64,000 nucleotides of DNA from Gammaproteobacteria bacterium (GTDB lineage Bacteria; Pseudomonadota; Gammaproteobacteria; SZUA-152), in NCBI GenBank assembly GCA_032250735.1, contig JAVVEP010000005.1, positions 91,602 through 155,601 on the forward strand. The letters are read 5' to 3'. The notes under the pieces were generated by a model. The model had not been told where the DNA came from and did not search any database. It was given only the letters and a program-made list of their open reading frames with translations. Positions within the stretch are counted from its first letter, which is position 1, and each line of letters begins with the position of its first letter. The translations under genes and the position numbers were made by a program. This document shows, one piece after another, positions 8,558 through 28,167 of the stretch.

Positions 8558-8737
8558 GATGTCCTTCGATGTGCGGATGCAGGTGCTGACGATGTGAGTG
8601 TGCGGAGCCGGTATTTTAGCACCGCTGGCGGAGGGTCGACAGTCGTTGACCCGTCTGGTGGCCCGATTTATAGTGCAGCGCACAGGTGCGTTACGAGGTT
8701 TAGCGGTGATGATCCACAAATTGAAGGCTGAGCGATA

Positions 8738-8947
8738 ATGGCCGATTCCGAAATTTCCAGACTCGAAGTGCGGATTGATGAGCTGATCGCCCTGGCCGAT
8801 CAGTTGAGCAGCGAAAACCATCTCATGCGTGAACGGCAGAATATGCTGGTGGAGGAACGGGCCCGGCTGATCGAAAAGGCCGAAATGGCGCGCACCCGTG
8901 TGGAGTCCATGCTGGTGCGACTGAAGGCCATGGAGACGGAGTCATGA
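8738..8947 (+). CDS. Small coiled-coil protein encoded upstream of zapA (TIGR02449-like)
   Basis: 69-aa heptad-rich ORF overlapping the zapA start by 4 nt. Confidence 0.5.
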   Translation: MADSEISRLEVRIDELIALADQLSSENHLMRERQNMLVEERARLIEKAEMARTRVESMLVRLKAMETES

Positions 8948-9267
8948 GCGACAAACCCGTGCAGAGCAAGGCGATCAGTATTCGCGTGCTGGAAAAGGAG
9001 TATCAGGTCTCCTGCCCGGCGAATGAAGAGGCGGCCCTGATGGCATCGGCACGCCTGCTGGACGAGAAGATGCGCGAGATCCGTAGCGCCCGCAAGATGG
9101 TGGGCACCGACCGCGTCGCGGTGATGGCGGCCCTGAATCTGGCGCATGATTTATTGCGTCTGCAATCGGGCGATGGCGCTGATGAGAGCAACGTCAACGG
9201 CAAGCTGCGCAGTCTGCAAAGCAAGGTGGAGGCCGCGATTACGCGGAGTCGGCAGCTGGAGCTGTAG
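8944..9267 (+). CDS. zapA: Cell division protein ZapA
   Basis: 107 aa with the ZapA signature (ISIRVLEKEYQVSCP...AARLLDEKMREI). Sits in the zapA-ssrS-ygfA context. Confidence 0.8.
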   Translation: MSDKPVQSKAISIRVLEKEYQVSCPANEEAALMASARLLDEKMREIRSARKMVGTDRVAVMAALNLAHDLLRLQSGDGADESNVNGKLRSLQSKVEAAITRSRQLEL

Positions 9268-9408
9268 CGGATATTGGCTTATTTGTTATTGGCTTCAGTG
9301 TGAAACAACAGATCGGCCCAACAGGACAATCAGGCACTTTCACTTTTCGAAACCTTTCATTAAACTTCCCTGTAGATTTTTTGATCAGTAGTACCCTTTT
9401 TAAAGAAT

Positions 9409-9597
9409 GGCGCCGCCTGCGGTGTTCGATACTGTATCGGATTTTTCTTGGCCTATGCTTAACCCTGTTGGGGGCATTACATCGGTGTTGTGTGCATGTC
9501 CGTTCATCGGAAAGCCTGATATGCCGATTGTTGTTCCCACCTCAATCGCTCCGGTCCCAAGAGTGACGATACGGCCGGCACAGGCGGGGGGCGCCTC
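9409..9597 (+). ncRNA. ssrS: Putative 6S RNA (ssrS)
   Basis: Non-coding gap of about 400 nt between zapA and ygfA, which is the conserved 6S locus. The 5' end GGCGCCGCCUGCGGUG can pair with the 3' end CACAGGCGGGGGGCGCC, enclosing about 187 nt, followed by a T-run. Confidence 0.5.
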
Positions 9598-9672
9598 TTT
9601 TTTATGTCTGTTCACCATTGCTCATGGCAACGCCCTGGTTCGTCTCGGTGGTGAACCCCTGTTGCACCCGGC

Positions 9673-10296
9673 GTGAAGCAAAACGCCGCTAGCCCCACTC
9701 TGCGTCAGTCGCTGCGACAGGGTCGTCGCGCAATGGATGCACGAGAACATGCCCGACGCAGTGCAAAGGCCGGCTTCCATCTCACCCGCCATCGGCTGTT
9801 TCAGTCGGCCCGGCATATCGCCGCCTACCTGCCCAACGACGCAGAGCTGGATCCCACCGGCATCATGCTCAAGGCCTGGGAGATGGGTAAGACGGTATAC
9901 CTGCCGGTGCTCAGCCGCCATCACCACAATCATCTCCACTTCCTGCCCTACGCGCCCGGCGACAAACTGCTGCCCAATCGATTTGGCATCCCCGAACCGG
10001 TGAGCCGTGGGCGGCGCATGGTCAGGCTCCAGCGGCTGGATCTGGTATTAACGCCCCTGGTGGGTTTTGATGCGCAGGGAAATCGGCTGGGCATGGGCGG
10101 TGGATTTTATGATCGCAGTTTTGCCTTTTTGCGCCGGCGGCAAGCCTGGCGCAAACCTCGTCTGCTGGGTCTGGCCTTTGATCGGCAGAAGGTGGCTCCG
10201 CCCTCCGGTCTGACACGCCAGCCGTGGGACGTGCCGCTGGACGGCGTGGTGACCGAGTCGGGGTTGAGCCTGTTTAAAAGCAGTGGGCAGGGATGA
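9673..10296 (+). CDS. ygfA: 5-formyltetrahydrofolate cyclo-ligase (YgfA family)
   Basis: 207-aa ORF with the MTHFS family motif (GMGGGFYDR). Conserved position downstream of the 6S RNA. Confidence 0.75.
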   Translation: MKQNAASPTLRQSLRQGRRAMDAREHARRSAKAGFHLTRHRLFQSARHIAAYLPNDAELDPTGIMLKAWEMGKTVYLPVLSRHHHNHLHFLPYAPGDKLLPNRFGIPEPVSRGRRMVRLQRLDLVLTPLVGFDAQGNRLGMGGGFYDRSFAFLRRRQAWRKPRLLGLAFDRQKVAPPSGLTRQPWDVPLDGVVTESGLSLFKSSGQG

Positions 10297-10392
10297 TGTT
10301 GTCGCGGGACGTGTGCGGGCTACGTTACGGGACTGTGTTACGGGGCTCTGATCGACGGTGAAGAGAAGGCTGTGCCGCTGGCTTTGAGCAAA

Positions 10393-10440
10393 AAAAACGG
10401 CGGCCCCTTTCCCTTGTTATGAGGGAAAGGGGCCGCCGTT
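10393..10440. terminator. Bidirectional rho-independent terminator (16-bp perfect stem)
   Basis: aaaaaaaacggcggcccctttccc-ttgttatga-gggaaaggggccgccgtt, placed between the convergent ygfA and DUF1501-like genes. Confidence 0.75.
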
Positions 10441-10472
10441 GTTATGTGGGAAAGGAAACGGAAATCGGTTGC

Positions 10473-12116
10473 TTACAAGACCGAGCCGAAGGCGGTAAGG
10501 CTGTCACGCATCGCGGCATTACCGAGACTGTCGCCGAACAGGCTGCCAAACAGGGCCTCTTCGCCGTTCAGGGCAAGGTAGTTCAGTAACACCGTATCCA
10601 CCAGCAGGTTGACGTTGTTGGCCGCCGGACTGGACGAGGTCACCACCGAGCCTCCGTCATTGAACCAGCCGATTTGCGCGCCGGTGGCGATGGCGCTGTC
10701 ACTGAAGTGGGTGGCCCGGCCATTGGGGCTGAAGACCAGGAAGAAGCCGGCCGCCGTGGAGGAATTGTCACCCGTCCATACACCCTTGCCGCGGCCGTTC
10801 ACGCTGCCATCAATGGCGCCGTTACTGGCCAGTGAGCCATCACTGAAGACGTAGATCATCACCGGGCTATCCATGCGCCGCGCATATTCCAGGCAGGCAC
10901 CGATGCAGCGGCCGGCACGCAGATCGCGCACCTCGCCGGTAGCGCGGTCACCGGTATGGTAATCAAACCCTCCCATCTGGATAGTGCCGGCGCCGGCATG
11001 ACCGTCGATGACCATCTTCATCACCGAGGCGGTCTTGCGGAATTCGGCGTCACCATCGAACTCGGCCTCGGTGAAGATACCGCCAGCATCATTGACGATA
11101 ATTCGGTCAGCTGGAAGGATGGCATTCCGGTCATCGGGGCTGATCTCTTTGCCGACAAAGCGGTCGGCGATATCGGCGGCCTTGATGTAGCCGCAGTTCA
11201 GAAGATCCTGAATGACGGTGGAGGCATTGATGTTGGCCGTCTTTCTCTCGCTGAGGCGCACCACGGATTCCATCACCGCCTTGACGTCACTCGGGTCGCT
11301 GAGCACGGCGGTGAGATCGCCGGTATCAACCAGGCCAGTCACGTCGGATGGACGATCGACTTTGGTGGGGCGAATTTCAGCGGCTTTAAACAGAGGGTCG
11401 GTGAGGTGAGCGGCAGGCGCCATGGAGTTACCACCCGATTCGGAATTGCGGGAGCCTACCAGAGTGACGATGTCGCCACCGGCGCCGGCCCTGGCGATGC
11501 CGTACATGGGGTTGTGCGGATTGTTGCCGGTATCGTTGTCGGAGCGGGCCGGAATCACGGCGCCGTTCACCTTCGGGGCGGTCAGGGCCAGGTCGACCTT
11601 GTCGAGGATGCCGCGCAGATAGGCGCTGTCGGCGTGGAACGGCAGGCCCAGGGTGGTGTCGGTGTAGTCGCCATTGCTGGTGCCGGTGACCGAGAAGCCG
11701 GCGGGTTCGACACCGCCCGGCACCATATCACCCGGCACCCCCATCTTGCTGTAGCCCGCGGTGCTGAGCGGGGAGTTGATGTAGCCGTTTTGTCCGCCGA
11801 CCAGGACGTTGGAACCCACCATGTTGGCGCCGCCGGCCAGGTCAAAACAGATGAAGGGAATCTTGCCGGCCAGGGCGGAGCCGAGGGGGCAGCCGCTGTT
11901 GGCGGCAAGGGTTTGCAGGTCCGCGGAGAGGGCCGCCCGCGCCAGACGCGGATTGGCAAACAGGCTGAACAGGGAGCCGCCGATGGTGAGACCGGTGCCG
12001 GTAATGAAGCCCTGACGCAGGAAGTCGCGCCGGGTCACCGGGCGGCCGTGATCCAGATGGAACAGGGGCGCATCGGCGGAGAGCGCTTGGCGTCGTGTCG
12101 TTGTGCGTTTTGCCAT
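10473..12116 (-). CDS. Tat-exported DUF1501-like (sulfatase/phosphatase-superfamily-like) protein
   Basis: 547 aa with a twin-arginine motif (TRRDFLRQGFITGTG) and a GGFDYHTGD motif reminiscent of DUF1501. Last gene of a three-gene operon. Confidence 0.55.
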   Translation of the reverse strand: MAKRTTTRRQALSADAPLFHLDHGRPVTRRDFLRQGFITGTGLTIGGSLFSLFANPRLARAALSADLQTLAANSGCPLGSALAGKIPFICFDLAGGANMVGSNVLVGGQNGYINSPLSTAGYSKMGVPGDMVPGGVEPAGFSVTGTSNGDYTDTTLGLPFHADSAYLRGILDKVDLALTAPKVNGAVIPARSDNDTGNNPHNPMYGIARAGAGGDIVTLVGSRNSESGGNSMAPAAHLTDPLFKAAEIRPTKVDRPSDVTGLVDTGDLTAVLSDPSDVKAVMESVVRLSERKTANINASTVIQDLLNCGYIKAADIADRFVGKEISPDDRNAILPADRIIVNDAGGIFTEAEFDGDAEFRKTASVMKMVIDGHAGAGTIQMGGFDYHTGDRATGEVRDLRAGRCIGACLEYARRMDSPVMIYVFSDGSLASNGAIDGSVNGRGKGVWTGDNSSTAAGFFLVFSPNGRATHFSDSAIATGAQIGWFNDGGSVVTSSSPAANNVNLLVDTVLLNYLALNGEEALFGSLFGDSLGNAAMRDSLTAFGSVL

Positions 12117-12150
12117 GGTCTTGTCCTCGGTAAATCTCTTGTAGTCCGAA

Positions 12151-14988
12151 TTATTGAATCAGCATGCCGGCACTGCCCAACACGGCGGTACACAGGGCCT
12201 TGGTGACGGCGCGGGTGCGGGCTGCATCTGTGACACATGCAGGAGTAGTCGCGGCGGCACAGTTGCTGGCCAAAATATCAAATAGGTTGTTGCCACCGGG
12301 GCCGATCAGTTGCAGTTTGATGTCCGCACGGCTGGGCATGTCGATCAGTGTCGCATTGCCGTTACCGGCATCGGGGTAGCCCAGCATCCGGTCGTATAGG
12401 GCATCGACGATCTGGTTTTTCGCCGCCGAATCGCCGCTGCCGAAGGCGGTTGCCATGTCGCTGGTGAAGTCAAAGCTGCCGAAGAAGTTGGCGCGCAGGC
12501 TGGCGTCTTCCACCAGCGCATCACAGTAGGCGATGGCCAGCTGGGCGACCGCCATCTGATGGGCCGAGAGGAAACCCGCGGCCATCTCCACCGACGGCAG
12601 CTGCTGTTTGATGCCGCTGATAATGCCGGTAGCGGGATCCTGCCTGACGTAGGTTTCCAGAACGTTGGAGAAGGCCGGCAGATAGGGGTCGACACCGGTC
12701 ATCGCGCCCATGGAGGCCAGGATCTCCTCAAAGGTGCGCAGGCCGATCTCGGGTTGCGGGTCGCCATCCTGTGGATTGCTGACGCAGGTCATGTTGATGC
12801 CGCAGACGCTCGGGGTGCGGGTGTTCTGGTTGCCGTTGATGTCCTCGAAGGTCAGGAAGAACTCGTCGCTATCCGCCCCCTTTTCCAGCGCGATGATGGT
12901 GCCCAGCCGGGTCAGCAACTGACCGGTGCTGGTGTAGTCCGTGGTGTTGATGGTGGTGTCGAGATTGGTATAGGCCTGACCCACCGCGGGTTCCTTGCCA
13001 TTGAGGCCGATGCGCAGGCCCTTGATCACCGTGTCGCTCGGCACGAAGGCGGGGTTCAGGCTGATGAAGGTGGGCCGGTCGAACAGGTAGCTGTAGCTGT
13101 CGAACTGGCTGACCACAAAATAGACGAAGCACTGGTGCACCCCGGCCACGATACAATCGGAAGCGTTCATCTGTTCGCTGACGCTGAACAGGACGAAGAA
13201 TTTCTCGCCCACCCCGGCATCGAAGTTTTGCGTGATCTGTGTCGGGGTCATGGCGCGATCATGGATGGCGACCAGCCGCAGTTTGCCCGCCCAGGGCCGG
13301 TTGTTGGAGGCCTCATTACCGAGGATGAAGGCGAAGGTGTTATCCCAGTTGGAGAGGCTGCCTGCCGGCATCACCGGGTCGGTGCTACCCGCATCGGCAC
13401 CGACGGTGGAGACATCCACGCCGTTGACATAGACCTTGCGGCCGGTGGCGGGGCTGAAGGTGACCACTACGTGTTGTTGGGTGGCCTGTAGGTCTTCGTC
13501 GCCGTCGTCGGTCAACAGGGCGGCCTCGCCGTTGTCATCGGTGGACGTGGAGCGGTTCATAAAGGAGTAGCGGTATTCGGCCTGCCCCAGGGTGAAATTG
13601 CGTTCATCCGGACCGGCCGAGTAGCTGATGATGCGGGCAGGATCGTCGGCGTCGCCCTGGGTGACATTGGCGGGCACCACCCAGGCCTCGATGGAATACT
13701 CACCACTTGCTGTTATGTAGTCGCGCAGCTTGGCGCTGGCCTGGGTGGTGCCCTGCGCCTTGCCGGCGGGGGTGACGAATTCAATGCCCCAGCCGCCGAC
13801 CCATTTGTAGTCGACATCTTCGGTGCCATACAGGTCGAGATCCAGTTGGGTGCCGACACCGCTGGTGTCGCGAATGGTGCGCTCGCCTGGACCGTCCTTG
13901 AATTTGTACAGCGCGATGGTGCTGGAGTCATCGCGGACGCCACCACTGGCGATCTGGCCGTCGGTGATATTCATGGCCTTGCTGAGTTGCCAGTCAGGGT
14001 CCACTGCGCTTAGAGAAATGGTGCCGGCAAAGGCGGTGATGGCGGCTTCCATTGCATCGGCGGAATCTGTGCAATTGGTGTCGCCGGTAGCAAGGGGATC
14101 CCAGCAGTTATGGAACTCCTCGCGCAGCCGCACTACCAGCCGGGAGTTGGCTGGGATATCGAGATTGATTTTCTGGCTGCTGAGGATGGCGGCATAGGCC
14201 GCGTCCACATCGCCCTCGGCAAAGAAGGGGGCCTGGGGGATGGGGGCCGACTCGCGATGGCAGTTGGCGCAGTTGGCGGTCAGCAGTGGCCATACGGTGC
14301 TGCTGAAGCTACCCGGTGCCGCTGGCAGGGTCTTGCTCGAACCCGCGTCCTTGATGGTGGGGACTTCCAGTACGATCTCATTGCTGGTGCCGCTACCGCC
14401 GCCGGTAGTACCGCCGCTCAACCAGTTGTTGATATAGCCTTCTACTGTGGTTGCGAGGGCTTCGCAGGCGGTGGTGTTGCCGCAGTTGTGACCATTGCTG
14501 ATCTTGCTAAGAATAGTGGAGCTGGCGATGTCGGCTTCATTGACAAGACCGGCGTTGATCATTTGCCCATAGGCCTTGTTGACATCGGCGCTATCCATGA
14601 ACAAAGGGCTTACGTTGCCGGTTTCCGAGTTGTGGCAGTTGGCGCACTGACTGACGCTGGGCATCTTGTCCCAGAACTCCACCTTGAAGCTGCAGGCGTC
14701 GGCAATGGTGTCGGGATCGGTGGCGCCGGTGCCGCAGGCCGGACCGGTATAGCTGAGTGTCGAGCCTCCGCCACTGCCGGTGTTGACGGTGGACTCGGTG
14801 GGCACGCTGTCGCAGGCGGCAAGGGTCAGGCTGAGCAGGGCGATGGGCAGCAGGGTGGATAGCCATGCAGGCAGGCATGAGTGCAGCCGGGACGGCATCC
14901 CTGTCAGCAGGGGATGGCGTTGATGGTCGGTGTTGAGGCGGCTTGGCTTGTTCATCGCAATGCTCCAAAAAAACTTTTTATAGTCCAA
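12151..14988 (-). CDS. Secreted lipoprotein with two N-terminal c-type haem-binding motifs and a LamG-like domain (PSCyt/PSD-like)
   Basis: 945 aa with a signal peptide and lipobox-like LTLAAC, then CANCH at two sites in the first ~260 aa, and a LamG/concanavalin-like block (PWAGKLRLVAIHDRAMT). Confidence 0.55.
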   Translation of the reverse strand: MDYKKFFWSIAMNKPSRLNTDHQRHPLLTGMPSRLHSCLPAWLSTLLPIALLSLTLAACDSVPTESTVNTGSGGGSTLSYTGPACGTGATDPDTIADACSFKVEFWDKMPSVSQCANCHNSETGNVSPLFMDSADVNKAYGQMINAGLVNEADIASSTILSKISNGHNCGNTTACEALATTVEGYINNWLSGGTTGGGSGTSNEIVLEVPTIKDAGSSKTLPAAPGSFSSTVWPLLTANCANCHRESAPIPQAPFFAEGDVDAAYAAILSSQKINLDIPANSRLVVRLREEFHNCWDPLATGDTNCTDSADAMEAAITAFAGTISLSAVDPDWQLSKAMNITDGQIASGGVRDDSSTIALYKFKDGPGERTIRDTSGVGTQLDLDLYGTEDVDYKWVGGWGIEFVTPAGKAQGTTQASAKLRDYITASGEYSIEAWVVPANVTQGDADDPARIISYSAGPDERNFTLGQAEYRYSFMNRSTSTDDNGEAALLTDDGDEDLQATQQHVVVTFSPATGRKVYVNGVDVSTVGADAGSTDPVMPAGSLSNWDNTFAFILGNEASNNRPWAGKLRLVAIHDRAMTPTQITQNFDAGVGEKFFVLFSVSEQMNASDCIVAGVHQCFVYFVVSQFDSYSYLFDRPTFISLNPAFVPSDTVIKGLRIGLNGKEPAVGQAYTNLDTTINTTDYTSTGQLLTRLGTIIALEKGADSDEFFLTFEDINGNQNTRTPSVCGINMTCVSNPQDGDPQPEIGLRTFEEILASMGAMTGVDPYLPAFSNVLETYVRQDPATGIISGIKQQLPSVEMAAGFLSAHQMAVAQLAIAYCDALVEDASLRANFFGSFDFTSDMATAFGSGDSAAKNQIVDALYDRMLGYPDAGNGNATLIDMPSRADIKLQLIGPGGNNLFDILASNCAAATTPACVTDAARTRAVTKALCTAVLGSAGMLIQ

Positions 14989-15018
14989 CTATGAGTAGGT
15001 GATTATGCGGTGTTCCGT

Positions 15019-16248
15019 TCAACTGCCTTTGCAGTACACGGCGCTGTCGGCAAACACCTGTTTCAATTTGTAGGTGCTGGACTTGAAGGTGGTGGTCATG
15101 GCGTCGATCTGGCTGCGGTCGGTGGCGTCCACCGGTGCGCGCAGGCACACGGCCTTGAATACTTTTTCGACCTGGCAGCGGGCGAAGGCCTCGCTGTGGG
15201 CCAGTTCCTTACCCATGGAGGAGGCGCCGCTGCCGCTGCCGGTTAAGGCCGAATCCCAGCCCAGCGCACTGTTGCTGCCGGCGCGCCAGTAGTTATCCCA
15301 GTTATCGTTAGGGGTGATGTAGCCGTATTCAAAGTTGTTGGCGTTGATGAGGTATTTCCCCTGCACCGTATCGGCGGTATAGACCATGTGTCCGGCATCG
15401 TAGTCCGGGTCACCGTTGCCATCTACAGGGTATTCATAGTTGTAATAGGCGAAGGCCTGGGTCAGGGGATCCATGCCGTTGTGGCAGCCGATGCAGGCGT
15501 TCATGTAGATGCGGCTGTCGCCACCCGGGCTGCGCGACACGTCCTGACGGATGCGGTCCGGGGTATAGCTGGTGTCTTTCAGCTGTTCCAGATCATTACA
15601 GAGGTGATTGAGCAGGGTGAAGCGGAACATGGCGCGATTGGTGCCGTCCACGAAGAAGGCCTTGGCCGCGGCGCGGGTGGTCATCACCCCTGCGGCGGCG
15701 CCAACCGGCAGACTCATGGCGGCCGTCTGGGTGGTTTCGGTCAATACCGCCTGCAGATCGGCACCGCTGTCTTCCAGGGCCTGATAGTGAGCGTTACTGG
15801 TAGTGAGGTTGGAAGGGGCTGGGCCGGTATAGAGGATGTCGTCCCACAGGATGCGGCGGAAGTCATGATTGTCGCGCACGATGCCGATCACCGTCGCGGT
15901 GTAGTCATTGAGTGGCGCAAACACGGTCTGTTCTTCGTTGGTCCAGGGGGTGACGAAATTTTTCAGCGTGACCCGATAGAACTCCTGGCCGACACAGTTA
16001 TCACCAGCACCATCATCGGTGATGGCGTCCATCGCCGCGGCGCCGGCACTGACGGTAGTGAGCTTGTTTTGCAGCTGATCCAGGCAGGCGGTGCTGGGTG
16101 GGGTGCCCACCAGCCGGTCATGTATGCGTTTGGCCTGTTCGCGGTCGCCGGCCAGGGCCGGGCCAAGCAGCGCCATCGATAGCAGCAGGGCGAGCGCAGG
16201 GCTGACGCTGGAAGGTGAGAGGCGGTGTGCAAAGGTCTTGGTACTCAT
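15019..16248 (-). CDS. Secreted mono-haem (CxxCH) protein of unknown function
   Basis: 409 aa with a signal peptide and a single CIGCH motif in the C-terminal half. First gene of the operon, 31 nt upstream of the 945-aa gene. Confidence 0.5.
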   Translation of the reverse strand: MSTKTFAHRLSPSSVSPALALLLSMALLGPALAGDREQAKRIHDRLVGTPPSTACLDQLQNKLTTVSAGAAAMDAITDDGAGDNCVGQEFYRVTLKNFVTPWTNEEQTVFAPLNDYTATVIGIVRDNHDFRRILWDDILYTGPAPSNLTTSNAHYQALEDSGADLQAVLTETTQTAAMSLPVGAAAGVMTTRAAAKAFFVDGTNRAMFRFTLLNHLCNDLEQLKDTSYTPDRIRQDVSRSPGGDSRIYMNACIGCHNGMDPLTQAFAYYNYEYPVDGNGDPDYDAGHMVYTADTVQGKYLINANNFEYGYITPNDNWDNYWRAGSNSALGWDSALTGSGSGASSMGKELAHSEAFARCQVEKVFKAVCLRAPVDATDRSQIDAMTTTFKSSTYKLKQVFADSAVYCKGS

Positions 16249-16754
16249 GTTCGGTATCCTTGTTCTCGCGGGCCGGTATCTTGGTGTCGGCCAGTCCTGC
16301 GTTTAGTTATGTGGTGAATCGCACAGTCTGGAGATTCACCGGGTTTCGGTTCGCCGCACGGTGTCGTTATGATGCTCCGGAAAAACTACCCTGTATGCTG
16401 TGATGGTGGTCACAGAGCCTCTGCAATTCTTGCACGGGTTTGAGATGAATGCAGAGTTTGTTATTGATATTGCGCCCTTTTTTGATCACATGCGGATCTA
16501 TAACGTCTGGCGTGATGGCAAGGTTCCTTGGCGCTGTCGCTATTTCACTCTAGGTCTGTCAGCCTTCATATGAGCTGGCGTGAAGCCCATGGCCATCGGC
16601 TTTTCAGGGAAAGCCGTGGGGGAAATAGACGACCCGGTCACAGTCTGTCGTACATCCGGCAGGGGGCAGCACGGAGGATGAGCCGCAAAATGCAGTGATG
16701 CCGGATAAGCCGGCGCTCCCTTATCGGTTTCTGTTCTGTGGTTTGCCTCATGCC

Positions 16755-18393: not shown

Positions 18394-19029
18394 GTGATGA
18401 CACAACAGGTCAATTTGTTTCAGCCCCTGTTCCGCAAGGAGCGCAAGTTGCTGTCGTTCCGCGTGCTGTGGCAGGGCGGCGCGGCAGTTGGGGTGTTGCT
18501 GATGCTGATGTATGGCTGGGGCCTGCAACAGACCGCGCAGATGAGCGCCGAGCTAAAAAAACAGCAGGCCCAGCAGCAGCTGTTCAGCCGCCAGCTGGGC
18601 GAGGTGAGCGCCCGCCTGGCGGTGATGAGGACCGATACCGCCCCGCAGCGGCAGCTGGCCGAGCTGGAGCGCGAACTGGTGGCGCGTCAAAAAGTGGTCG
18701 ATGCCCTGACCCGTGTGCGTGACACCTATACCCAGGGGGTTTCGGCCTATCTGGACAGTTTTTCCCGTCAGGCCCCCCAGGGTGTCTGGCTGACCGGGTT
18801 TACCGTACAGGCCGGTGGCGAGGGGCTGGTGATTCGGGGCAGCTCGCTGCGGCCCGAGCTGGTACCGACCTTTCTGGAGCAACTGGCGACCGAGAGCACC
18901 CTGCTGGGCACCCAGTTTGGCCTGTTGCAGATCCAGCGCAGCAGCGCCGATGCCCAGGCCGTGGATTTCACGGTGACCACCGGCACCGAGGCGCCGGAGG
19001 CCAGCCGTCTGCTGGAGCTGACCCCGTGA
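18394..19029 (+). CDS. MSHA biogenesis protein, PilN-like (MshI C-terminal-type)
   Basis: 211 aa with a single N-terminal transmembrane segment and a coiled coil. First gene of the msh operon. Confidence 0.5.
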   Translation: MMTQQVNLFQPLFRKERKLLSFRVLWQGGAAVGVLLMLMYGWGLQQTAQMSAELKKQQAQQQLFSRQLGEVSARLAVMRTDTAPQRQLAELERELVARQKVVDALTRVRDTYTQGVSAYLDSFSRQAPQGVWLTGFTVQAGGEGLVIRGSSLRPELVPTFLEQLATESTLLGTQFGLLQIQRSSADAQAVDFTVTTGTEAPEASRLLELTP

Positions 19030-19045
19030 ACAGGGCAATAAGACA

Positions 19046-19759
19046 ATGACAGTAAAAGAGAGAATCAGCGCCTGGGCCGAGCGTTACGAGGCCTTCTCCC
19101 TGCGCGAGCGCGGGCTGGTGATCGTGGGGGTGATCGTGCTGCTGTTCATGCTCTGGGACAGCCTGCTGATGACCCCGGAACAGCAGCGGCAGACCCAGAT
19201 CGTGGCGCAGATGCAGGCGATGAATCAGCAGACCGAGGCGCTCAATCTGCAGATTCAGGAGATGTCGGCGGCCCTGCGCGGCGGTGAGGCCCAGCATATC
19301 CAGGCGCGCACCACCGAGCTACAGGCGCTGTTGGCCGGTCTCGCACAGAAGCAGGAAGATCTGACCGTCCAGTTTATTCAGCCCCGACAGATGGCGGCGG
19401 TATTGCGCGACATGCTGTCGGCGGAGAACGGCCTGGAGCTGACCCAGTTGACCAGCCTGGGCGCGCAACCCCTGTTCCCCCCGACCCGTGAAGAGACCGA
19501 AAACGCGGCCACCAGTGCAGCGGCCCCGGCGCTAAAAACCACCGCCCGGTCGCATCGCCCGGAGGTCTTTAAACACGGCCTGCGGATCGTGTTCGAGGGC
19601 GACTATTTCAAGACCCTGGCCTATCTGCGCGCACTGGAGGCCATGCCCTGGCGCCTGTACTGGGACAACGTGGAATATCTGGTGACCGATTATCCCCGCG
19701 CACGGGTCGCCATCACGGTACACACCCTGAGCCTGCATGAGGGCTGGATCGGTGTGTAG
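19046..19759 (+). CDS. mshJ: MSHA biogenesis protein MshJ (PilO-like)
   Basis: 237 aa with an N-terminal transmembrane segment and coiled coil, in operon position. Confidence 0.5.
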   Translation: MTVKERISAWAERYEAFSLRERGLVIVGVIVLLFMLWDSLLMTPEQQRQTQIVAQMQAMNQQTEALNLQIQEMSAALRGGEAQHIQARTTELQALLAGLAQKQEDLTVQFIQPRQMAAVLRDMLSAENGLELTQLTSLGAQPLFPPTREETENAATSAAAPALKTTARSHRPEVFKHGLRIVFEGDYFKTLAYLRALEAMPWRLYWDNVEYLVTDYPRARVAITVHTLSLHEGWIGV

Positions 19760-20156
19760 CTATTTAAAGCTAGAGAAATATCTGCCGCCCGCGCTGTTGT
19801 CGCTGGTCCTGCTGGGAGTGTGGCCGGTGCAGGCGATGCAGGACCCCACCCGTCCGCCCGTGGCCGAGGCAACGGCCCGGGCGGTGGCTGTGCAGCAAAA
19901 CTCGTCGCCCCGCTGGACGCTGCATTCCACCCTGGTGTCCTCGGCCAGGCGCACGGCGGTGATTAATGATCGCGTGGTGAGTCAGGGTGATCGCATTAAC
20001 GGTGCGACCGTGGTGAGCATTCAGCCGGCGGCGGTGCTGCTGCGGGTCGCCGGTCGTGAGCTGAGATTGGGGATGGAAAAGAAAAATATTAAATCATTGT
20101 CGCGAACCGATTCCGCGGGACATTCCGCAGTACCTTCCGTAGTACAAGGGAAATGA
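19737..20156 (+). CDS. mshK: MSHA biogenesis protein MshK-like
   Basis: 139-aa small secreted protein immediately upstream of the secretin gene. Confidence 0.4.
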   Translation: MRAGSVCSYLKLEKYLPPALLSLVLLGVWPVQAMQDPTRPPVAEATARAVAVQQNSSPRWTLHSTLVSSARRTAVINDRVVSQGDRINGATVVSIQPAAVLLRVAGRELRLGMEKKNIKSLSRTDSAGHSAVPSVVQGK

Positions 20157-21961
20157 AGATGCCGATTAACACCCCTGTAAAAGACCGCCGGCCGCCGGCT
20201 GTGCCCCTGTTGACGCCCCTGCTGCTGACCACCCTGCTGCTGACGGCCTGTGCCGGTCAGCCGCCCCGCGGCGGGAGTGTTGCCGATGACATCAACCAGA
20301 GCCTGCAGCACAGTGCGCAACAGTCGGCCGCCACCGCCGCCCAGCCGCTGACGCCGCCGCCGGCGGTGGATGCCGCGCTGTTGCCGCCATTGAATGTCGA
20401 GCTGAGCGGCGTGCGCCAGGAGCCGGTGGCGCGGCGCTTCGATGTGGCGGTCAATAACGCCAGTGCCAAAAGCTTTTTCATGAGCCTGGTGGAGGGCACG
20501 CCCTACAATATGGTCGCCCACCCGGCCATCAAGGGCAGGATTTCACTCAACCTGAAAAACGTCACCATCGACGAGGTGATGGAGACGGTGCGCAATGTGT
20601 TTGGTTATGAATACAAACGCACCCGGCACGGTTTCGAGGTGCTGCCCGCCGCGCTGCGCTCGCATGTGTTCAGTATCGATTACCTCAATGTGCGGCGTTC
20701 CGGCCTGTCCAATGTGCAGGTCAGCTCCGGCCAGGTGTCATCGGCCCAGAACGGCAACTCCGGTTCAGGTAGTAGCAGTGGCGACTCCGGTAGCAACTCA
20801 GGTAGTAATTCAGCTAGTAATTCAGGTAGTAACAACGGCAACGCCAGTGTCTCCGGCAGCCAGATCAGCACGCATTCATCGTCCGATTTCTGGGTCGAGC
20901 TGACCGCGGCCCTGGAGGCCATTATCGGCAACGAGGGGGGCCGCAAGGTCATCGTCAATCCGCAGTCGGGCATCGTGGTGGTGCGCGCCATGCCGGCGGA
21001 GCTGAGGGCGATATCGGAATACCTGCACAGCACGCAAACGGTGATTGAGCGCCAGGTGATCCTGGAGGCCAAGATCCTGGAGGTGGAGCTGAGCGACGGG
21101 TTCCAGTCGGGGGTGAACTGGTCGGCGCTGGGCAAGGGCAGCGGCAGCGATACGGTGCTCGCAGGGCAGTTCGGCGGCGCGACGGTGTTTGATACCGGCT
21201 ATAGCAATCTACAGGGCCAGGTCAACGCCCTCAATCCCGCCAATCTGGCCGCGGTGCGTTCCGATGTCGCCTCGGCCTTCGGCGGCATGTTTGCCATGAG
21301 TCTGAATCTCGGCGACTTCACCGGGTTTCTGGAATTTCTGGAGACCCAGGGCGATGTGCATGTGCTGTCCAGCCCACGGGTGTCGACGGTGAATAATCAG
21401 AAGGCGGTGATCAAGGTAGGCTCGGATGAATTTTTCGTCACCGATGTGGACACCAATGACAACACTACGGCGGGGTCGACCACCACCAACCAGTCAGTGG
21501 ATATCGAGCTGACCCCGTTCTTCTCCGGCGTGGCCCTGGATGTGATCCCGCAGATCAGCGCCGATGGCGTGGTGACCCTGCATATCCACCCCTCGGTCAG
21601 CGAGGTGAATGAACGCATCAAACAGATCAGCCTGAATGCCAGCAACCAGCTGACCATCCCGCTGGCGCTGAGCACCATCCGCGAATCCGACAGCATTGTG
21701 CGCGCCCGTAGCGGGCAGGTGGTGGTGATCGGCGGCCTGATGCAGAACCAGACCCGGGACAGCACCTCATCCGTGCCCCTGCTGGGTGACCTGCCGCTGA
21801 TCGGCGGCCTGTTCCGTCACAAGCAACAGGTCACCCGCAAGAGCGAGCTGGTGATCCTGCTGCGGCCCATCGTGGTGGAAAACGATAAGACCTGGGCCGA
21901 TGAGATCGCCAAGACCACCGGCAACTTCGGCAATATCACCCAGTTCAGCCAGGACCACTAG
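20153..21961 (+). CDS. mshL: MSHA secretin MshL (GspD/PilQ secretin family)
   Basis: 602 aa with a lipoprotein-like signal and a secretin C-domain (VIGGLMQNQT...VPLLGDLPLIGGLFR). An internal Ser/Gly/Asn low-complexity linker is present. Confidence 0.8.
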   Translation: MKMPINTPVKDRRPPAVPLLTPLLLTTLLLTACAGQPPRGGSVADDINQSLQHSAQQSAATAAQPLTPPPAVDAALLPPLNVELSGVRQEPVARRFDVAVNNASAKSFFMSLVEGTPYNMVAHPAIKGRISLNLKNVTIDEVMETVRNVFGYEYKRTRHGFEVLPAALRSHVFSIDYLNVRRSGLSNVQVSSGQVSSAQNGNSGSGSSSGDSGSNSGSNSASNSGSNNGNASVSGSQISTHSSSDFWVELTAALEAIIGNEGGRKVIVNPQSGIVVVRAMPAELRAISEYLHSTQTVIERQVILEAKILEVELSDGFQSGVNWSALGKGSGSDTVLAGQFGGATVFDTGYSNLQGQVNALNPANLAAVRSDVASAFGGMFAMSLNLGDFTGFLEFLETQGDVHVLSSPRVSTVNNQKAVIKVGSDEFFVTDVDTNDNTTAGSTTTNQSVDIELTPFFSGVALDVIPQISADGVVTLHIHPSVSEVNERIKQISLNASNQLTIPLALSTIRESDSIVRARSGQVVVIGGLMQNQTRDSTSSVPLLGDLPLIGGLFRHKQQVTRKSELVILLRPIVVENDKTWADEIAKTTGNFGNITQFSQDH

Positions 21962-21963
21962 GC

Positions 21964-22881
21964 ATGTATCGGCAACACTTTGCACTGCGCGAGATGCCCT
22001 TCGCCATCACCCCGGATACCAGCTATTTCTACAGCTACGGCGTCTATCAGGAGGCCCTCAACGTGCTGCTGGTGGCGCTGCGCAGCGGCGAGGGCTTTAT
22101 CAAGATCAGCGGCGAGGTGGGGACGGGAAAGACCCTGCTGTGCCGCAAGCTGCTCAACACCCTCGGCGACGGTTTTGTCACCGCCTATCTGCCCAACCCC
22201 TGCCTGACCCCCGCCGGATTACGCATGGCGCTGGCCGATGAGCTGTCCATCCACTATGCCCGCAACATGGGCCAGCACCGCATTCTGCAACTCATCAACG
22301 AGCGCCTGATCGAACTCAACGCTCAGGGAAAACAGGTGGTGTTGCTGCTGGACGAGGCCCAGGCCTTGCCCGATGACAGCATGGAGGCGCTGCGCCTGCT
22401 GACCAATCTGGAAACCGAAAAGAGCAAGCTGCTGCAGGTGGTGCTGTTCGGCCAGCCCGAGCTGGATGATCGGCTGGCCGCAAGCCGGCTGCGCCAACTG
22501 CGCCAGCGCATCACCTTCTCCTACGACCTGGACGTGATCGATCGCGCCGGACTCGACGGCTATCTCGGCCACCGCCTGCTGGTGGCCGGCTATAACGGCC
22601 GACCCCTGTTCAGCCGCGCGGCGATGGATGCCCTGCACCGGGACAGCCGCGGCGTGCCCCGGCTGATCAATGTGCTGGCCCACAAGGCGCTGATGGTGGC
22701 CTACGGCAAGGGCGTGTTTTGCGTCGATGCCCCGCATGTCGCTATCGCCGCCGCCGATACCGAGGCGGTGGTGCCGATCGTTGCCGGCGGATTGTCAGGA
22801 CGCCTCACCCGCGTCGGCGCCGCCGTCGCCAGCGTGATGGGCGCCGCGGCGGCCGCGGCGGCCATGAGCCTGGGGGTCTGA
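21964..22881 (+). CDS. mshM: MSHA biogenesis ATPase-like protein MshM (ExeA-type AAA)
   Basis: Walker A motif GEVGTGKT and Walker B motif LLLDEAQ. Confidence 0.7.
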   Translation: MYRQHFALREMPFAITPDTSYFYSYGVYQEALNVLLVALRSGEGFIKISGEVGTGKTLLCRKLLNTLGDGFVTAYLPNPCLTPAGLRMALADELSIHYARNMGQHRILQLINERLIELNAQGKQVVLLLDEAQALPDDSMEALRLLTNLETEKSKLLQVVLFGQPELDDRLAASRLRQLRQRITFSYDLDVIDRAGLDGYLGHRLLVAGYNGRPLFSRAAMDALHRDSRGVPRLINVLAHKALMVAYGKGVFCVDAPHVAIAAADTEAVVPIVAGGLSGRLTRVGAAVASVMGAAAAAAAMSLGV

Positions 22882-22884
22882 GGC

Positions 22885-24219
22885 ATGAGCCTGGTGAATC
22901 AGATGCTGCAGGATCTGGAACAGCGCCGCACGGCGGAGGCCGGCGCGTCGCCCCTGAGTGGCCTGAGCGCCAGCGGTGCCGGGGTGCTGTCCGGCGCATC
23001 GATCAACTATCTATGGCTGGGCGCGAGCTTGGCGCTGATCTTCGCCGCCGTGTTTGTGCTGGTGTATCTGTTCGGGCGCGAGCCGTCGCTGGCGGCGGAA
23101 CCGGCCATGAGCCAGAAGGCCGGGACCCGGAATACCGAGGCTCAAAATATAACCACCCGGAACGTCATGCCGCTGGCCGTCGCGCCCGTAGCGGAACCCG
23201 AATCAGTGTCGCCACCGGTGGTGGCCGCGCAGCGCGAGAAGGCGGCCCCCATCGCCGCTGCGCAACCGCCAACGCCGGCGACCCAGGCCCGGCCCGCGAT
23301 GGCCACAACTACAGCCACAACTACAGCCACGGCGAGTGCCCCGGTGCTGGCCATAACCCCCCATAGCGATACGACAGCGGAGGCCGGCGCGGTACGGGTC
23401 ACGGCCGGACCGGACGCCACGTCATCCGCCAATCCGCGCTTGTCGCAAACACAGTCGCAACCGCAACCGCAACCGGAAGCAAAGCTGGAAGCCCAGCCGG
23501 AACCAGCGTTGGAATTACAGGCTGAGCTTCAGCCGGAACTACAGTCGGAACTACAGCCGGAACCGATGAACAAGACCCTGCGCCCGCTGACCCGCGAGCA
23601 GCAGGCCCGGCAAACCTTCCAGCAGGCGGTGCTGCTGCTGGGCCGGGGGGATGAGTCGGGCGCGGAACAGGCCCTGCACAAGACCCTCGCCGTGGAGCCC
23701 GCCCATCTGCGCGCCAGAGAGACACTGTCCGCCCTGTTATTGAATACCGGGCGGGTGAGCGAGGCGGCAGACGGCCTGCGCGAGGGCCTGCGCCTGCAAC
23801 CCACGGCCACGGCCCTGGCCAAGCTCTACGCCCGCGTGCTGGTGGATCAGGGCGACAGCGAGGCGGCGGTGGCCGTGCTGGAACAGGCGCCCCCCACGCA
23901 GGCCGCCGATGCGGACTATTACGCCCTGCTGGCCGCCCTGTACCGCGCGGCCGGCCGGCACGCACAGGCCTCGCAGGTCTATCAACAACTCTTGAAGGGG
24001 CGCCCGGGTGTGGCGGCCTGGTGGCTGGGGCTGGCCCTGTCGGAGGATGCCATGGGTGCGCTGCCCCAGGCGCTGGAGGCCTATCGGCGCGCGCATCGCG
24101 CGGGTGGCCTGAAGCCCGAGGTGCTGGCCTATGTGCAGTCGCGCATTGCGGCGCTGGACGCCCGCGTGGCGGAGACCGCGCCGCCTGCGGCCAATGACAG
24201 TGATGGATTCGGGGACTGA
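22885..24219 (+). CDS. mshN: MSHA biogenesis TPR-repeat protein MshN
   Basis: 444 aa with an N-terminal transmembrane segment, a Thr/Ala/Pro/Gln-rich repeat linker and C-terminal TPR repeats. Confidence 0.6.
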   Translation: MSLVNQMLQDLEQRRTAEAGASPLSGLSASGAGVLSGASINYLWLGASLALIFAAVFVLVYLFGREPSLAAEPAMSQKAGTRNTEAQNITTRNVMPLAVAPVAEPESVSPPVVAAQREKAAPIAAAQPPTPATQARPAMATTTATTTATASAPVLAITPHSDTTAEAGAVRVTAGPDATSSANPRLSQTQSQPQPQPEAKLEAQPEPALELQAELQPELQSELQPEPMNKTLRPLTREQQARQTFQQAVLLLGRGDESGAEQALHKTLAVEPAHLRARETLSALLLNTGRVSEAADGLREGLRLQPTATALAKLYARVLVDQGDSEAAVAVLEQAPPTQAADADYYALLAALYRAAGRHAQASQVYQQLLKGRPGVAAWWLGLALSEDAMGALPQALEAYRRAHRAGGLKPEVLAYVQSRIAALDARVAETAPPAANDSDGFGD

Positions 24220-24221
24220 TT

Positions 24222-25928
24222 ATGTCGGAACGGCCACAACGTATTCGCCTGGGTGATCTGCTGGTTGAACACAAACTGATTTCGGAAGTGCAGCTCTCTG
24301 CGGCACTGGATGAGCAGAAAAAGTCCGGCCACAAACTGGGGCGTGTGCTGATCGAGAACGGCTATGTCAAGGAAGACGAGGTGTTGGGTCTTCTGTCACG
24401 ACAGCTGAATGTGCCCTTTGTGGATCTCAGTACCTTTCAGTTCAGACAGGAAGTCGTCAACAAATTGCCTGAAACAGCGGCGCGTCGCTTCCGCGCGATT
24501 GCCCTGGAAGACACGCCCGATGGCCTGCTGGTGGGCATGGCCGATCCGACCAATATTTTTGCCTACGACGATTTGGTTCGCGTGGTGAAAGGTCCAATCA
24601 AGATGGCCGTGGTCAAAGAGGGCGACCTGGTGGCTGCCATTGATCGTGTTTATCAGCACGGCTCGGAAATTCAAAGTCTCGCCACGGAAATCGGCGAGGA
24701 CATGGCCGAGAATGTGTTCGATCTGGGCGCCCTCAATCAGGCGGTCAGCAAGTCGGATGCGCCAGTGGTGCGGCTGATCGAGACGGTGTTTGAAGACGCC
24801 GTGGCGGCCAAGGCCTCCGATATCCATATCGAGCCGGACGAATCAGTGTTGCGGATTCGCCGCCGTATCGACGGGGTGCTGCATGAACAGGTGATGGATG
24901 AAAAGGCCATCGTGCCCGCGCTGGTCTCGCGCCTGAAACTGATGGCCAGTCTGGATATCTCCGAACGCCGCCTGCCGCAGGACGGGCGTTTTAATATCAA
25001 GCTCAAGAACAAATCCATCGATGTGCGTTTTTCCACCCTGCCGACCCAGTATGGCGAGGCAGTGGTGATGCGTCTGCTGGATCACTCCGACGGCGTGCAG
25101 GGGCTGGATCGTATCGGCCTGTCGGATGTGATCCGGGCGCGCCTGCAAAAGGCGATCCATCGCCCGCACGGCCTGCTGCTGGTCACCGGCCCAACTGGAA
25201 GTGGCAAGACCACCACCCTGTATGCGGCGCTCAATGAATTGAATACGCCGGAAAAGAAGATCATCACCGTGGAGGATCCGGTGGAGTATCGCCTGCCGCG
25301 CATCAACCAGGTGCAGGTCAATCAAAAGGTGGGGCTGGATTTTGCGCGGGTGCTGCGCACCACCCTGCGCCAGGACCCGGACATTATCCTGGTGGGCGAG
25401 ATCCGCGATCAGGAAACGGCGGAGATCGCCCTGCGCGCCTCCATCACCGGCCATCTGGTGATGTCCACCCTGCACACCAACGATGCGATCAGTACCGCCC
25501 TGCGCCTGGTGGACATGGGCGTGCAGGGATTTCTGGTGGCCTCCGCGGTGCACGCCATTGTGGCGCAGCGACTGGTGCGACGGGTGTGCGAGAAATGTGT
25601 CGCCCCCCAGGCGCTGGATGCCGGCCAGCTGAGCTGGCTGAAGAACACGGTGGGTGAGGAGCGTGCGGCCACTATGCAGTTTTCGCACGGCGCGGGTTGT
25701 CCCGCCTGCGGCCACAGCGGTTATAAGGGGCGCGCCGCCGTGCATGAAATGCTGGACATCACCGCCGAGCTTGCCGACGCCCTGCGCAACGAGGACTACG
25801 TTACCTTCAAGCAGCGCGCCCTGGCGCAGCCACAGTTTATCCCGCTGGTGGAAGGCGCCCTGGCGCTGACCCAGCAGGGCGTGACCTCGATCGATGAGGT
25901 GATTCGCATCAGTGGCTGGATAGACTAG
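24222..25928 (+). CDS. mshE: Type IV pilus assembly ATPase MshE (GspE family) with an N-terminal c-di-GMP-binding MshEN-type domain
   Basis: Walker A motif GPTGSGKTTT, Asp/His boxes and a tetracysteine motif (CEKC...CPAC), plus the N-terminal MshEN-type domain. Confidence 0.85.
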   Translation: MSERPQRIRLGDLLVEHKLISEVQLSAALDEQKKSGHKLGRVLIENGYVKEDEVLGLLSRQLNVPFVDLSTFQFRQEVVNKLPETAARRFRAIALEDTPDGLLVGMADPTNIFAYDDLVRVVKGPIKMAVVKEGDLVAAIDRVYQHGSEIQSLATEIGEDMAENVFDLGALNQAVSKSDAPVVRLIETVFEDAVAAKASDIHIEPDESVLRIRRRIDGVLHEQVMDEKAIVPALVSRLKLMASLDISERRLPQDGRFNIKLKNKSIDVRFSTLPTQYGEAVVMRLLDHSDGVQGLDRIGLSDVIRARLQKAIHRPHGLLLVTGPTGSGKTTTLYAALNELNTPEKKIITVEDPVEYRLPRINQVQVNQKVGLDFARVLRTTLRQDPDIILVGEIRDQETAEIALRASITGHLVMSTLHTNDAISTALRLVDMGVQGFLVASAVHAIVAQRLVRRVCEKCVAPQALDAGQLSWLKNTVGEERAATMQFSHGAGCPACGHSGYKGRAAVHEMLDITAELADALRNEDYVTFKQRALAQPQFIPLVEGALALTQQGVTSIDEVIRISGWID

Positions 25929-26090
25929 CCCATGCCACTGTATCAATACAAAGCGAGTAGGGTGGACACGCTTTTTGTGCCCACGGAATTTCGCTTGCCC
26001 GCTTGCCTACAAATGGTAGTGCAAGCGCCGCAGCAATTCGTGGGCACAAAAGACGTGCTCACCCTACATGCTGGGTCGAATAGCTAGCCC

Positions 26091-27311: not shown

Positions 27312-27607
27312 TGGCCGAGGAAAGAGGAAAGGGAAAAGATGAAAGGTGAGAAAGACCGCGTGAAATTGCGGCGAAGCTGCTGTACCGGATTTTATGAATC
27401 GCGCGCCCAGAGGGCGCCAGCAATCCCTTGTATCTTTACTCTTGTATCTTTTCTCTTTTTTATTGTAATTGGTTAAAGGTTTTTTCAGTCAGTACCGATA
27501 GTTACAGCGAATAGGCAATGAATAAAATTACCTCAGTGCCGGCGCGTCAATCGCCCCACCCATTTGATAGACAGTGACAAACAAGGCGCGAGCCTGGAGA
27601 AGAGAAA

Positions 27608-28009: not shown

Positions 28010-28167
28010 AAGGTTGTTCGCTGTCTAAAGCTGGTGAATGATCTGGACAATCATCCTGAATGAACTGTTAGCAATTCAGTGCGATGAAAGAAATAAATAA
28101 TATAGCCAGGTCGCGTGAGCAACCTGGCTTATTTTTTGGGATCAGGACTGTCGGGCTGGATGCGACG

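Follow-up and report, generated by a model that had tools for sequence, protein, structure and literature searches.

Gene organization and features of the encoded proteins

The 64,000-nucleotide stretch analyzed here (hereafter the window; part of contig JAVVEP010000005.1), which matches the locus tags RRB22_04745 and RRB22_04755 of a gammaproteobacterial metagenome-assembled genome, carries three collinear minus-strand genes that we refer to as A, B, and C. Gene A (15019–16248) encodes a Sec-exported mono-haem protein of 409 amino acids (aa), gene B (12151–14955) a lipoprotein of 934 aa, and gene C (10473–12116) a protein of 547 aa, exported by twin-arginine translocation (Tat), with a predicted alkaline-phosphatase-superfamily fold. 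The open reading frame (ORF) calls (A, 16248–15019; B, 14988–12151; C, 12116–10473) agreed with a preliminary description of this DNA, and translation recovered every motif quoted there (CIGCH, two CANCH, the lipobox, TRRDFL, and GGFDYH). The length of 945 aa given for B holds for the maximal ORF, which begins at an alternative TTG start (14988), but the likeliest product has 934 aa, because the ATG at 14955 has a GGAG 7 nt upstream and the NCBI protein P0121 is of the same length. With this start, the described spacing of 31–35 nt was retained between B and C (34 nt) but not between A and B (63 nt).

The gene-free stretch of about 500 bp reported ahead of the operon measured 506 bp (16249–16754); this putative promoter and leader region on the minus strand contained no credible ORF and matched no Rfam family. 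An intrinsic terminator was identified at 10396–10440 (minus strand), with a 19–20-bp GC-rich stem containing 13 G–C pairs and a T8 tail. The hairpin lies 33 nt past the stop codon of C, is bidirectional, and is common to the operon and the convergent gene for 5-formyltetrahydrofolate (5-formyl-THF) cyclo-ligase. No terminator-like sites were found between A, B, and C. Export signals, motifs, and spacing agreed with the compact operon that had been described, whose products are one mono-haem protein exported by Sec, one lipoprotein with two haem motifs and LamG, and one protein exported by Tat, and suggested that the three genes are co-transcribed.

Protein A consists of a Sec signal, a novel N-terminal part of ~220 aa, and a C-terminal part of ~160 aa resembling PSCyt3 and PSD2. 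Its haem c attachment motif CIGCH (15481–15495, minus strand; C252, C255, and H256) is followed by a conserved M259-D-P, and the two Cys residues and the His were invariant in a 30-sequence alignment of the family. The PSD2 (DUF1585)-like C-terminal domain (15055–15231, minus strand; aa 340–398 in Pfam) was recognized by both Pfam and hhalign. For A of the window, PSD2 scored 24.7 bits and PSCyt3 12.5 bits, both under the gathering scores (25.8 bits for PF07624 and 27 bits for PF07627, respectively). Relatives were also scanned singly. The cut-off was E ≤ 1 in the A and B families; of 83 members of the C family, 30 close relatives were scanned at E ≤ 10 and 53 diverse ones at E ≤ 1. Matches among A relatives were weak but consistent (PSD2/DUF1585 in 26/30 and PSCyt3/DUF1588 in 23/30), and some A relatives carry a precomputed PF07624 match. 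In addition, aa 251–398 of A aligned collinearly with residues 714–822 of a Pfam-verified PSCyt3-PSD2 protein (hhalign probability 85.6%, E 5.6e-6). The alignment spans the CxxCH-x2-[IM]-D-P motif and PSD2, with an insertion of ~60 aa in A between them. These data indicated homology between the C-terminal 160 residues of A and the stretch with PSCyt3 and PSD2 that terminates large proteins from the Planctomycetes–Verrucomicrobia–Chlamydiae (PVC) group. The N-terminal 220 aa matched no PVC family in profile–profile comparison, and the profile of the A family, which has at least 8000 clusters, returned nothing meaningful from PDB sequences. A and B were considered as paralogues and rejected as such; their hhalign alignment was limited to 17 columns at the haem motif.

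Protein B runs from a lipobox through a duplicated pair of c-haem modules and a LamG domain to a novel core domain at its C-terminus. The Cys of the lipobox (L-A-A-C; 14809–14823, minus strand) was invariant in 30 sequences, and the +2 residue was Asp in 13/30, including the clade of the window, and Gly in 14/30. By the E. coli rule, an Asp at +2 specifies retention at the inner membrane, where B of the window's clade may then be kept; other clades have Gly at this position. The haem modules (module 1, 14482–14646; module 2, 14104–14271; both minus strand) each contain CANCH (14632–14646 and 14257–14271), a Tyr at +25, and His-Asn-Cys at +52 (14482–14490) or +53 (14104–14112). CxxCH, Tyr, and His-Asn-Cys were invariant in both modules in the 30-sequence alignment; the recurrence of the Tyr and of His-Asn-Cys at these positions indicated that the N-terminus of B consists of a single haem module duplicated exactly, with haems that are probably bis-His ligated. 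Module 2 aligned with the PSCyt1 region at hhalign probabilities of 49–62% (E 7e-5 to 2e-4), suggesting a weak relationship.

All three CxxCH motifs were invariant in the alignments of A and B. As motifs conserved family-wide in exported proteins, they conform to the definition of c-type cytochromes, and A and B would thus bind haem covalently. The LamG-like block described in B proved to be a strong Pfam match (LamG/concanavalin-A-like domain; 13234–13743, minus strand; PF13385, E 3e-17) and was found in 30/30 family members. The C-terminal core domain was delimited approximately by hmmsearch with the B profile (12154–12738, minus strand). Profile–profile comparison of the C-terminal 340 aa with PVC families gave no match. 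Beyond LamG, generic cytochrome-c noise, and a lone faint PSCyt1 match (1/30 members, E 0.14), Pfam returned nothing for 30 members of the B family (1545 clusters), and the family profile gave nothing meaningful among PDB sequences.

Protein C bears the twin-arginine motif T-R-R-D-F-L (12018–12035, minus strand), in which R29 and R30 were invariant in 53 relatives. N-terminal to it, P17, L18, H23, P26, and V27 (residues 17–27; window 12047–12050 region) were also conserved, H23 in 98% of the 53 diverse relatives; conservation so far N-terminal of the twin arginines is unusual for a Tat signal. A fold search with the predicted model placed C in the alkaline-phosphatase superfamily; the highest-ranking matches included sulfatases, PhoK, NPP, and PafA, at ~10% sequence identity and with ~200 of the 547 residues aligned. 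C is accordingly predicted to have an alkaline-phosphatase/sulfatase-superfamily fold. Conservation in the 53 sequences, together with the model, delineated candidate metal or active-site residues at 10761–11543 (minus strand): S192, D195, and N199 (11517–11543), G-G-F-D385-Y-H387 (10956–10973), D426 (10833–10847), and D450 (10761–10775), with D/E92 and H161/S164 lying upstream of them. Invariant down to 27% identity were, besides the twin arginines, G95, G96, D195, D385, H387, D426, G427, D450, Q481, and G483; D/E92 (98%), S/T192 (98%), and S164 (91%) were near-invariant. In the model, the conserved Asp and His residues are found where core β-strands end, as in the metal site of the superfamily. 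A hard metal (Ca, Mg, Mn, or Fe) seems likelier here than two zinc ions, since the site is Asp-rich and has only one invariant His. S164 and S/T192 are candidate nucleophiles. The CxPxR/SxPxR signature of sulfatases was not among the conserved residues.

No Pfam or NCBIfam family matched C of the window, and Pfam gave no match, including Sulfatase, Phosphodiest, and Alk_phosphatase, for any of the 83 relatives. The family profile found no sequence-level match among solved structures. A search for relatives returned at least 8000 clusters; the profile retrieved only 1480 relatives (E ≤ 1e-3; clusters at 50% identity) among 1.84 billion representatives, which indicates that the family is self-contained. 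Publicly, its members are annotated as "hypothetical" or, wrongly, as "GspF", the NCBI name on many homologues (e.g., P0005, P0030, and P0119). GspF is a polytopic inner-membrane protein with a T2SSF domain. We rejected this assignment, as neither T2SSF nor any other Pfam or NCBIfam domain was matched; together with the soluble α/β fold of alkaline-phosphatase type predicted for C, this marks the name as a propagated misannotation. A search for Rosetta-stone fusions gave a sole over-long C homologue (P0020, 653 aa), which was an assembly duplication.

Distribution, minimal core, and putative upstream control

Contrary to the preliminary description, which had called such genes unusual in gammaproteobacteria, C relatives were found in at least 558 species genomes (scanned with one genome per species), and the best 80 of these, on which the following locus comparisons are based, were almost all from Gammaproteobacteria. 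The carriers among them included Alteromonas, Paraglaciecola, Aliiglaciecola, Microbulbifer, Porticoccus, Corallincola, Thiodiazotropha, Sedimenticola, Thiohalobacter, Thiogranum, Woeseiaceae, Oleiphilaceae, and Ketobacter; Hahella and Thiogranum longum were among the relatives in the protein search with B. Every reference genome examined had the trio at one locus per contig, counted by contig and not by genome. B and C adjoined in 80/80 loci, and the order A-B-C was found in 72/80, that is, in 72/72 informative loci, since a contig end cuts inside B in the other eight. Median spacers in 68 loci were 8.5 nt for A–B and 37.5 nt for B–C. The genes flanking the trio in the window (ZapA, 5-formyl-THF cyclo-ligase, and a GGDEF regulator) were common to only 3–7 of the closest loci, and this contrast with the conserved gene order suggests that the trio moves as an autonomous unit. 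A tblastn search of a plasmid collection with A and C found no relatives.

Two divergent loci (L081 and L082; GC 39–42%), in which the C relatives share 29–37% identity, delimited the core of the system. Both encode, in order, an A-like protein (E 1e-99 and 1e-101), a short lipoprotein of 215–238 aa, and a C-like protein. In hmmsearch, the short lipoprotein (L081 6344–6991 and L082 1449–2165) matched positions ~651–802 of the 847 in the B profile (E ~1e-17) and thus covers the C-terminal part of B only. Downstream of the C-like gene, L081 encodes a 1375-aa protein (8659–12786, plus strand) with B-type haem modules (E 4e-20) and further CxxCH motifs, from which we infer that the haem part is shuffled between genes. 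The gene content of these loci suggests an indispensable core of A, C, and the C-terminal domain of B in lipoprotein form; in B, the di-haem and LamG parts are apparently an accessory fusion to this domain.

Upstream of A, the window contains a perfect CRP/Vfr-type palindrome, TGTGA-N6-TCACA (16399–16414), centred ~158 nt ahead of the start codon. Perfect palindromes of this type occurred twice in the window against 0.03 expected; the second (TGTGACGCCGGTCACA) lies at 35696–35711. Among the upstream regions of 66 related loci, 26 had a CRP-type site with at most one mismatch, compared with 1.7 in shuffled sequences (maximum 4), and 13 had a perfect site. Motifs for Pho, Fur, FNR, sigma-54, ArcA, and NarL were at background in the same regions (Pho box, 2/66 against 1.4 expected), and control of the trio by phosphate, iron, anaerobiosis, or sigma-54 was rejected on the lack of enrichment of the corresponding motifs. 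Enrichment of the CRP-type site with Pho and Fur at background points to carbon and energy control rather than phosphate or iron scavenging, and a CRP/Vfr-type regulator would adjust expression to this status.

Relationship to planctomycete-type modules and proposed function

Genes for planctomycete-specific cytochrome (PSCyt) proteins were recognized in 2004–2012 to pair with genes for DUF1501 or DUF1552 proteins exported by Tat; they are among the most expanded PVC families, with their function unexplained. In the literature, PSCyt2/PSD1 pairs with DUF1501 and PSCyt3/PSD4/PSD2 with DUF1552; PSCyt3 always occurs with PSD4 (DUF1592) and usually also with PSD3 and PSD5, and LamG insertions are known in PVC PSCyt proteins. 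The preliminary description had recognized in the trio a likeness to Planctomycete-type PSCyt/DUF1501 modules, themselves without known function. In design this was borne out, as both have a haem protein, often with LamG, beside a Tat-exported partner; we also concur that the trio is not a recognizable respiratory complex. By contrast, the PSCyt1, DUF1549, DUF1553, DUF1501, and DUF1552 matches expected in Pfam were found in none of the three window proteins, nor in 30–53 relatives scanned singly apart from the faint PSCyt1 match in the B family. Specifically, DUF1501 (PF07394, gathering score 27 bits) was absent from C and its 83 family members, DUF1552/HXXSHH (PF07586) matched C neither in Pfam nor in profile–profile comparison, and none of PSCyt1, PSCyt2, and PSD1 (PF07635, PF07583, and PF07587) was recognized in B by Pfam, the latter two being found in 0/30 relatives. 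PSD3, PSD4, and PSD5 matched neither A nor B.

Genuine members used as controls scored 66–485 bits. One source was the Singulisphaera acidiphila plasmid NC_019893, with three DUF1501 and two PSCyt1-PSCyt2-PSD1 genes (DUF1501, 485 bits; PSCyt1, 66 bits; PSCyt2, 243 bits; PSD1, 298 bits). The other was metagenomic DNA scanned for the haem motif of PSCyt3, which yielded proteins of ~800–900 aa and then their partners of 410–475 aa; one such pair was confirmed by Pfam as PSCyt1-PSD3-PSD5-PSD4-PSCyt3-PSD2 with DUF1552 (DUF1552, 250 bits). Profiles were built from 49 partner proteins of PSCyt3 genes, including one confirmed DUF1552, and from three DUF1501 sequences only. As a positive control, hhalign joined DUF1501 and DUF1552 over 376 columns (97.8%, E 1e-12); these families, which the literature handles separately, are clearly homologous. 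The C family aligned with this three-sequence DUF1501 profile at 2.5% and with DUF1552 at 5.2%, in both cases over the Tat signal only. The weak PDB matches of DUF1501 itself were nearly all enzymes of the sulfatase/alkaline-phosphatase superfamily. The earlier designation of C as DUF1501-like is thus retained for fold class and Tat export but not for sequence homology.

Judged from these comparisons, the link of the trio to planctomycete families is real but partial, and it leads through the PSCyt3- and PSD2-like tail of A to a group other than the DUF1501 pairing first proposed. The PVC group with the architecture PSCyt1-PSD3-PSD5-PSD4-PSCyt3-PSD2 and DUF1552 (group III) ends in the region with which the tail of A is collinear, and likewise has a haem protein gene upstream of that for a Tat-exported partner of unexplained function. 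It differs in the size of the haem protein (~800–900 aa, against 409 aa for A), in its PSD3, PSD4, and PSD5 domains, in lacking both the insertion between haem motif and PSD2 and an additional lipoprotein subunit such as B, and in a partner to which C shows no detectable relation. It is also multi-copy in PVC genomes, unlike the single gammaproteobacterial locus per contig. The group with PSCyt1-PSCyt2(DUF1549)-[LamG]-PSD1(DUF1553) and DUF1501 (group II) shares with B the succession of c-haem, LamG, and C-terminal domain, as well as the weak PSCyt1-like character of the haem module, and its Tat-exported partner is of the same fold class as C. Here, the trio differs in lacking the PSCyt2, PSD1, and DUF1501 matches that the controls gave strongly; moreover, the C-terminal core of B matches nothing in PSD1, and B, a lipoprotein, carries two haems of putative bis-His type. 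B also lacks the Met-Pro-Pro motif that closely follows the haem site of PSCyt1 in the Singulisphaera proteins. Within the alkaline-phosphatase superfamily (S1 sulfatases, PhoK/NPP, PafA, and phosphoethanolamine transferases), C resembles known members in its Asp and His residues at strand ends, and is set apart by its low identity, the absence of a sequence match to any solved structure or Pfam family, the missing CxPxR signature, and its constant association with haem-protein partners.

Taken together, the trio, an operon of marine Gammaproteobacteria, very probably represents a third, sequence-distinct class of module with a PSCyt-type haem protein and a Tat-exported partner of alkaline-phosphatase fold, the gammaproteobacterial counterpart of the PVC modules. 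We slightly favour the view that A, B, and C form a three-subunit periplasmic complex with C as the catalytic subunit. Catalysis by C is suggested by its invariant acidic/His site and by its being the most conserved of the three (57–69% identity among relatives, against 40–59% for B). Its reaction would be a metal-dependent hydrolysis or group transfer directed at an anionic group of ester type (phospho-, sulfo-, or similar), and its obligatory partners at the membrane would be A and the C-terminal domain of B, which is lipid-anchored. The LamG domain of B would present or recruit a carbohydrate-type substrate, and the three c-type haems would exchange electrons with the site, making the reaction redox-coupled or redox-gated. 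Our confidence in any specific chemistry is low. In its broadest form, the proposal would make the trio a new type of periplasmic enzyme, in which a metallo-site of alkaline-phosphatase fold and c-type haems together convert a group that is of ester type or borne on a glycan in a redox-coupled reaction, and also, as A, the short form of B, and C, the ancestral or minimal form of the PSCyt/DUF1501/DUF1552 logic; we advance this only tentatively and consider it rather unlikely as a whole. To our knowledge, redox-coupled chemistry is not known in the alkaline-phosphatase superfamily.

Several observations weigh against this proposal. Neither S164 nor S/T192 can be assigned as the nucleophile, and a recognizable CRP-type site was missing in 40 of the 66 loci. 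Dispensability of the di-haem and LamG parts in divergent relatives implies that electron transfer through B is not essential to the core reaction, and the higher conservation of C than of B is easier to reconcile with one small, unchanging substrate than with a glycan that varies. Co-transcription, covalent haem on A and B, and complex formation are each deduced from sequence features. PDB profile searches and the literature found gave no characterized homologue of any trio member; nor did we find a functional study of the trio or of any PSCyt/DUF1501/DUF1552 module in the literature.

The trio may instead be a true but highly diverged PVC member, with C a DUF1501/DUF1552 homologue and A and B a split PSCyt protein, its function being whatever the PVC modules do. 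This explanation would account for the common design (haem protein(s), LamG, and a Tat-exported partner of about 450–550 aa), the tail of A, the weak PSCyt1 resemblance of the B haem module, the fold class common to C and DUF1501, and a G-x-[WF]-D-x-H motif similarly placed in both. We nevertheless regard it as somewhat improbable, because the hhalign comparison that tied DUF1501 to DUF1552 tied C to neither past the Tat signal, none of the 83 C members had a Pfam match, the relatives retrieved by the C profile fall well short of the very large DUF1501 family, and neither the N-terminal 220 aa of A nor the C-terminal core of B matched any PSD or PSCyt domain. The fold of C and its nearest structural matches are also compatible with a stand-alone periplasmic phosphatase, phosphodiesterase, or sulfatase for nutrient scavenging, beside which the haem proteins would be unrelated or merely structural; Tat export is known for some marine phosphatases, namely PhoX and PhoD. 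Such a role is very unlikely in view of the background frequency of Pho boxes upstream, the lack of a sulfatase signature among the conserved residues and of Pfam matches to Sulfatase, Phosphodiest, or Alk_phosphatase, and the presence of A and B (or the short form of B) beside C in every informative locus. This company, constant down to about 30% identity, is not what one would expect if A and B were unrelated to C.

A redox system, or an oxidoreductase for nitrogen or sulfur compounds, that works with a lipoprotein resembling the alpha subunit of hydrazine synthase (HZS) and leaves C a scaffolding or maturation role without catalysis is suggested by the many c-type haems, by the many sulfur-oxidizing lineages among the hosts, and by the divergent gene for this lipoprotein ~500 bp upstream of A in 56/80 loci. 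The lipoprotein has ~880 aa, a β-propeller-like N-terminus, two CxxCH motifs, and, in its middle, an HZS_alpha domain (PF18582, E 9e-18); in about 50 loci its gene is followed by one for a protein with an SH3 domain and an outer-membrane protein (OMP) β-barrel. The conservation of C and its invariant acidic/His site, which argue for catalysis, speak against this explanation. The HZS-alpha-like lipoprotein also shares no domain with A or B, and its gene is missing from the window and its clade, where the trio is fully conserved. We therefore give an oxidoreductase of this kind little credence, and the HZS-alpha-like neighbour was rejected as part of the system in the window.

If classed as proposed, the trio is a new version of a known but functionally unexplained type of module, and one that occurs in culturable, manipulable organisms. 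PVC modules are hard to study owing to dozens of paralogues per genome and difficult genetics. The trio offers a better entry point, with its single locus per contig, high conservation, and defined minimal core, and cultured carriers include Alteromonas, Paraglaciecola, Microbulbifer, Hahella, Porticoccus, and Thiogranum. Our analysis also exposes the C family as a large group that has neither a Pfam nor an NCBIfam model and is mislabelled in public databases. Should the trio indeed be the ancestral or minimal form, solving its function would explain hundreds of modules in Planctomycetes and Verrucomicrobia.

Neighbouring genes and other features of the window

The HZS-alpha-like lipoprotein gene is exemplified by L016 1087–3729 (minus strand in the locus) and was present in 55 other loci among L011–L080. 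Proteins of this kind appear to be undescribed in non-anammox Gammaproteobacteria. The SH3/OMP protein that follows has ~246 aa (e.g., L021 246–986, minus strand in the locus) and is a possible outer-membrane anchor for the HZS-alpha-like unit. Like its partner, it was missing from the window and from the loci of the window's clade, and the pair is a frequent but dispensable companion of the trio.

Downstream of C, about 21 loci of the Thiodiazotropha/Sedimenticola group (e.g., L041 9606–14830) encode a 179-aa protein together with large TPR-like proteins of 626 and 925 aa. About 10 loci of this group also encode a MotA/TolQ/ExbB-like protein; this association is lineage-specific.

In the window, the trio is bordered on one side by a housekeeping block (ubiH-like, pepP, UPF0149, zapA, 6S RNA, and 5-formyl-THF cyclo-ligase) and on the other by a gene for a GGDEF response regulator and then a cluster for a pilus of mannose-sensitive haemagglutinin (MSHA) type; both blocks are unrelated to the trio. 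The 6S RNA gene (SsrS; 9411–9594, plus strand; Rfam RF00013, 76 bits) lies between zapA (8944–9267) and the gene for 5-formyl-THF cyclo-ligase (9673–10296), in the classical zapA-ssrS-ygfA arrangement. The MSHA-type cluster (18394–31956, plus strand) includes a PilN-like gene at 18394 and a secretin with a Secretin_N_2 domain (20153–21961). It also contains the gene for an MshQ-like protein of 1290 aa (28084–31956, plus strand) with Calx-beta, LamG, and DUF6701 domains, which is the second LamG protein of the window and is unrelated to B.

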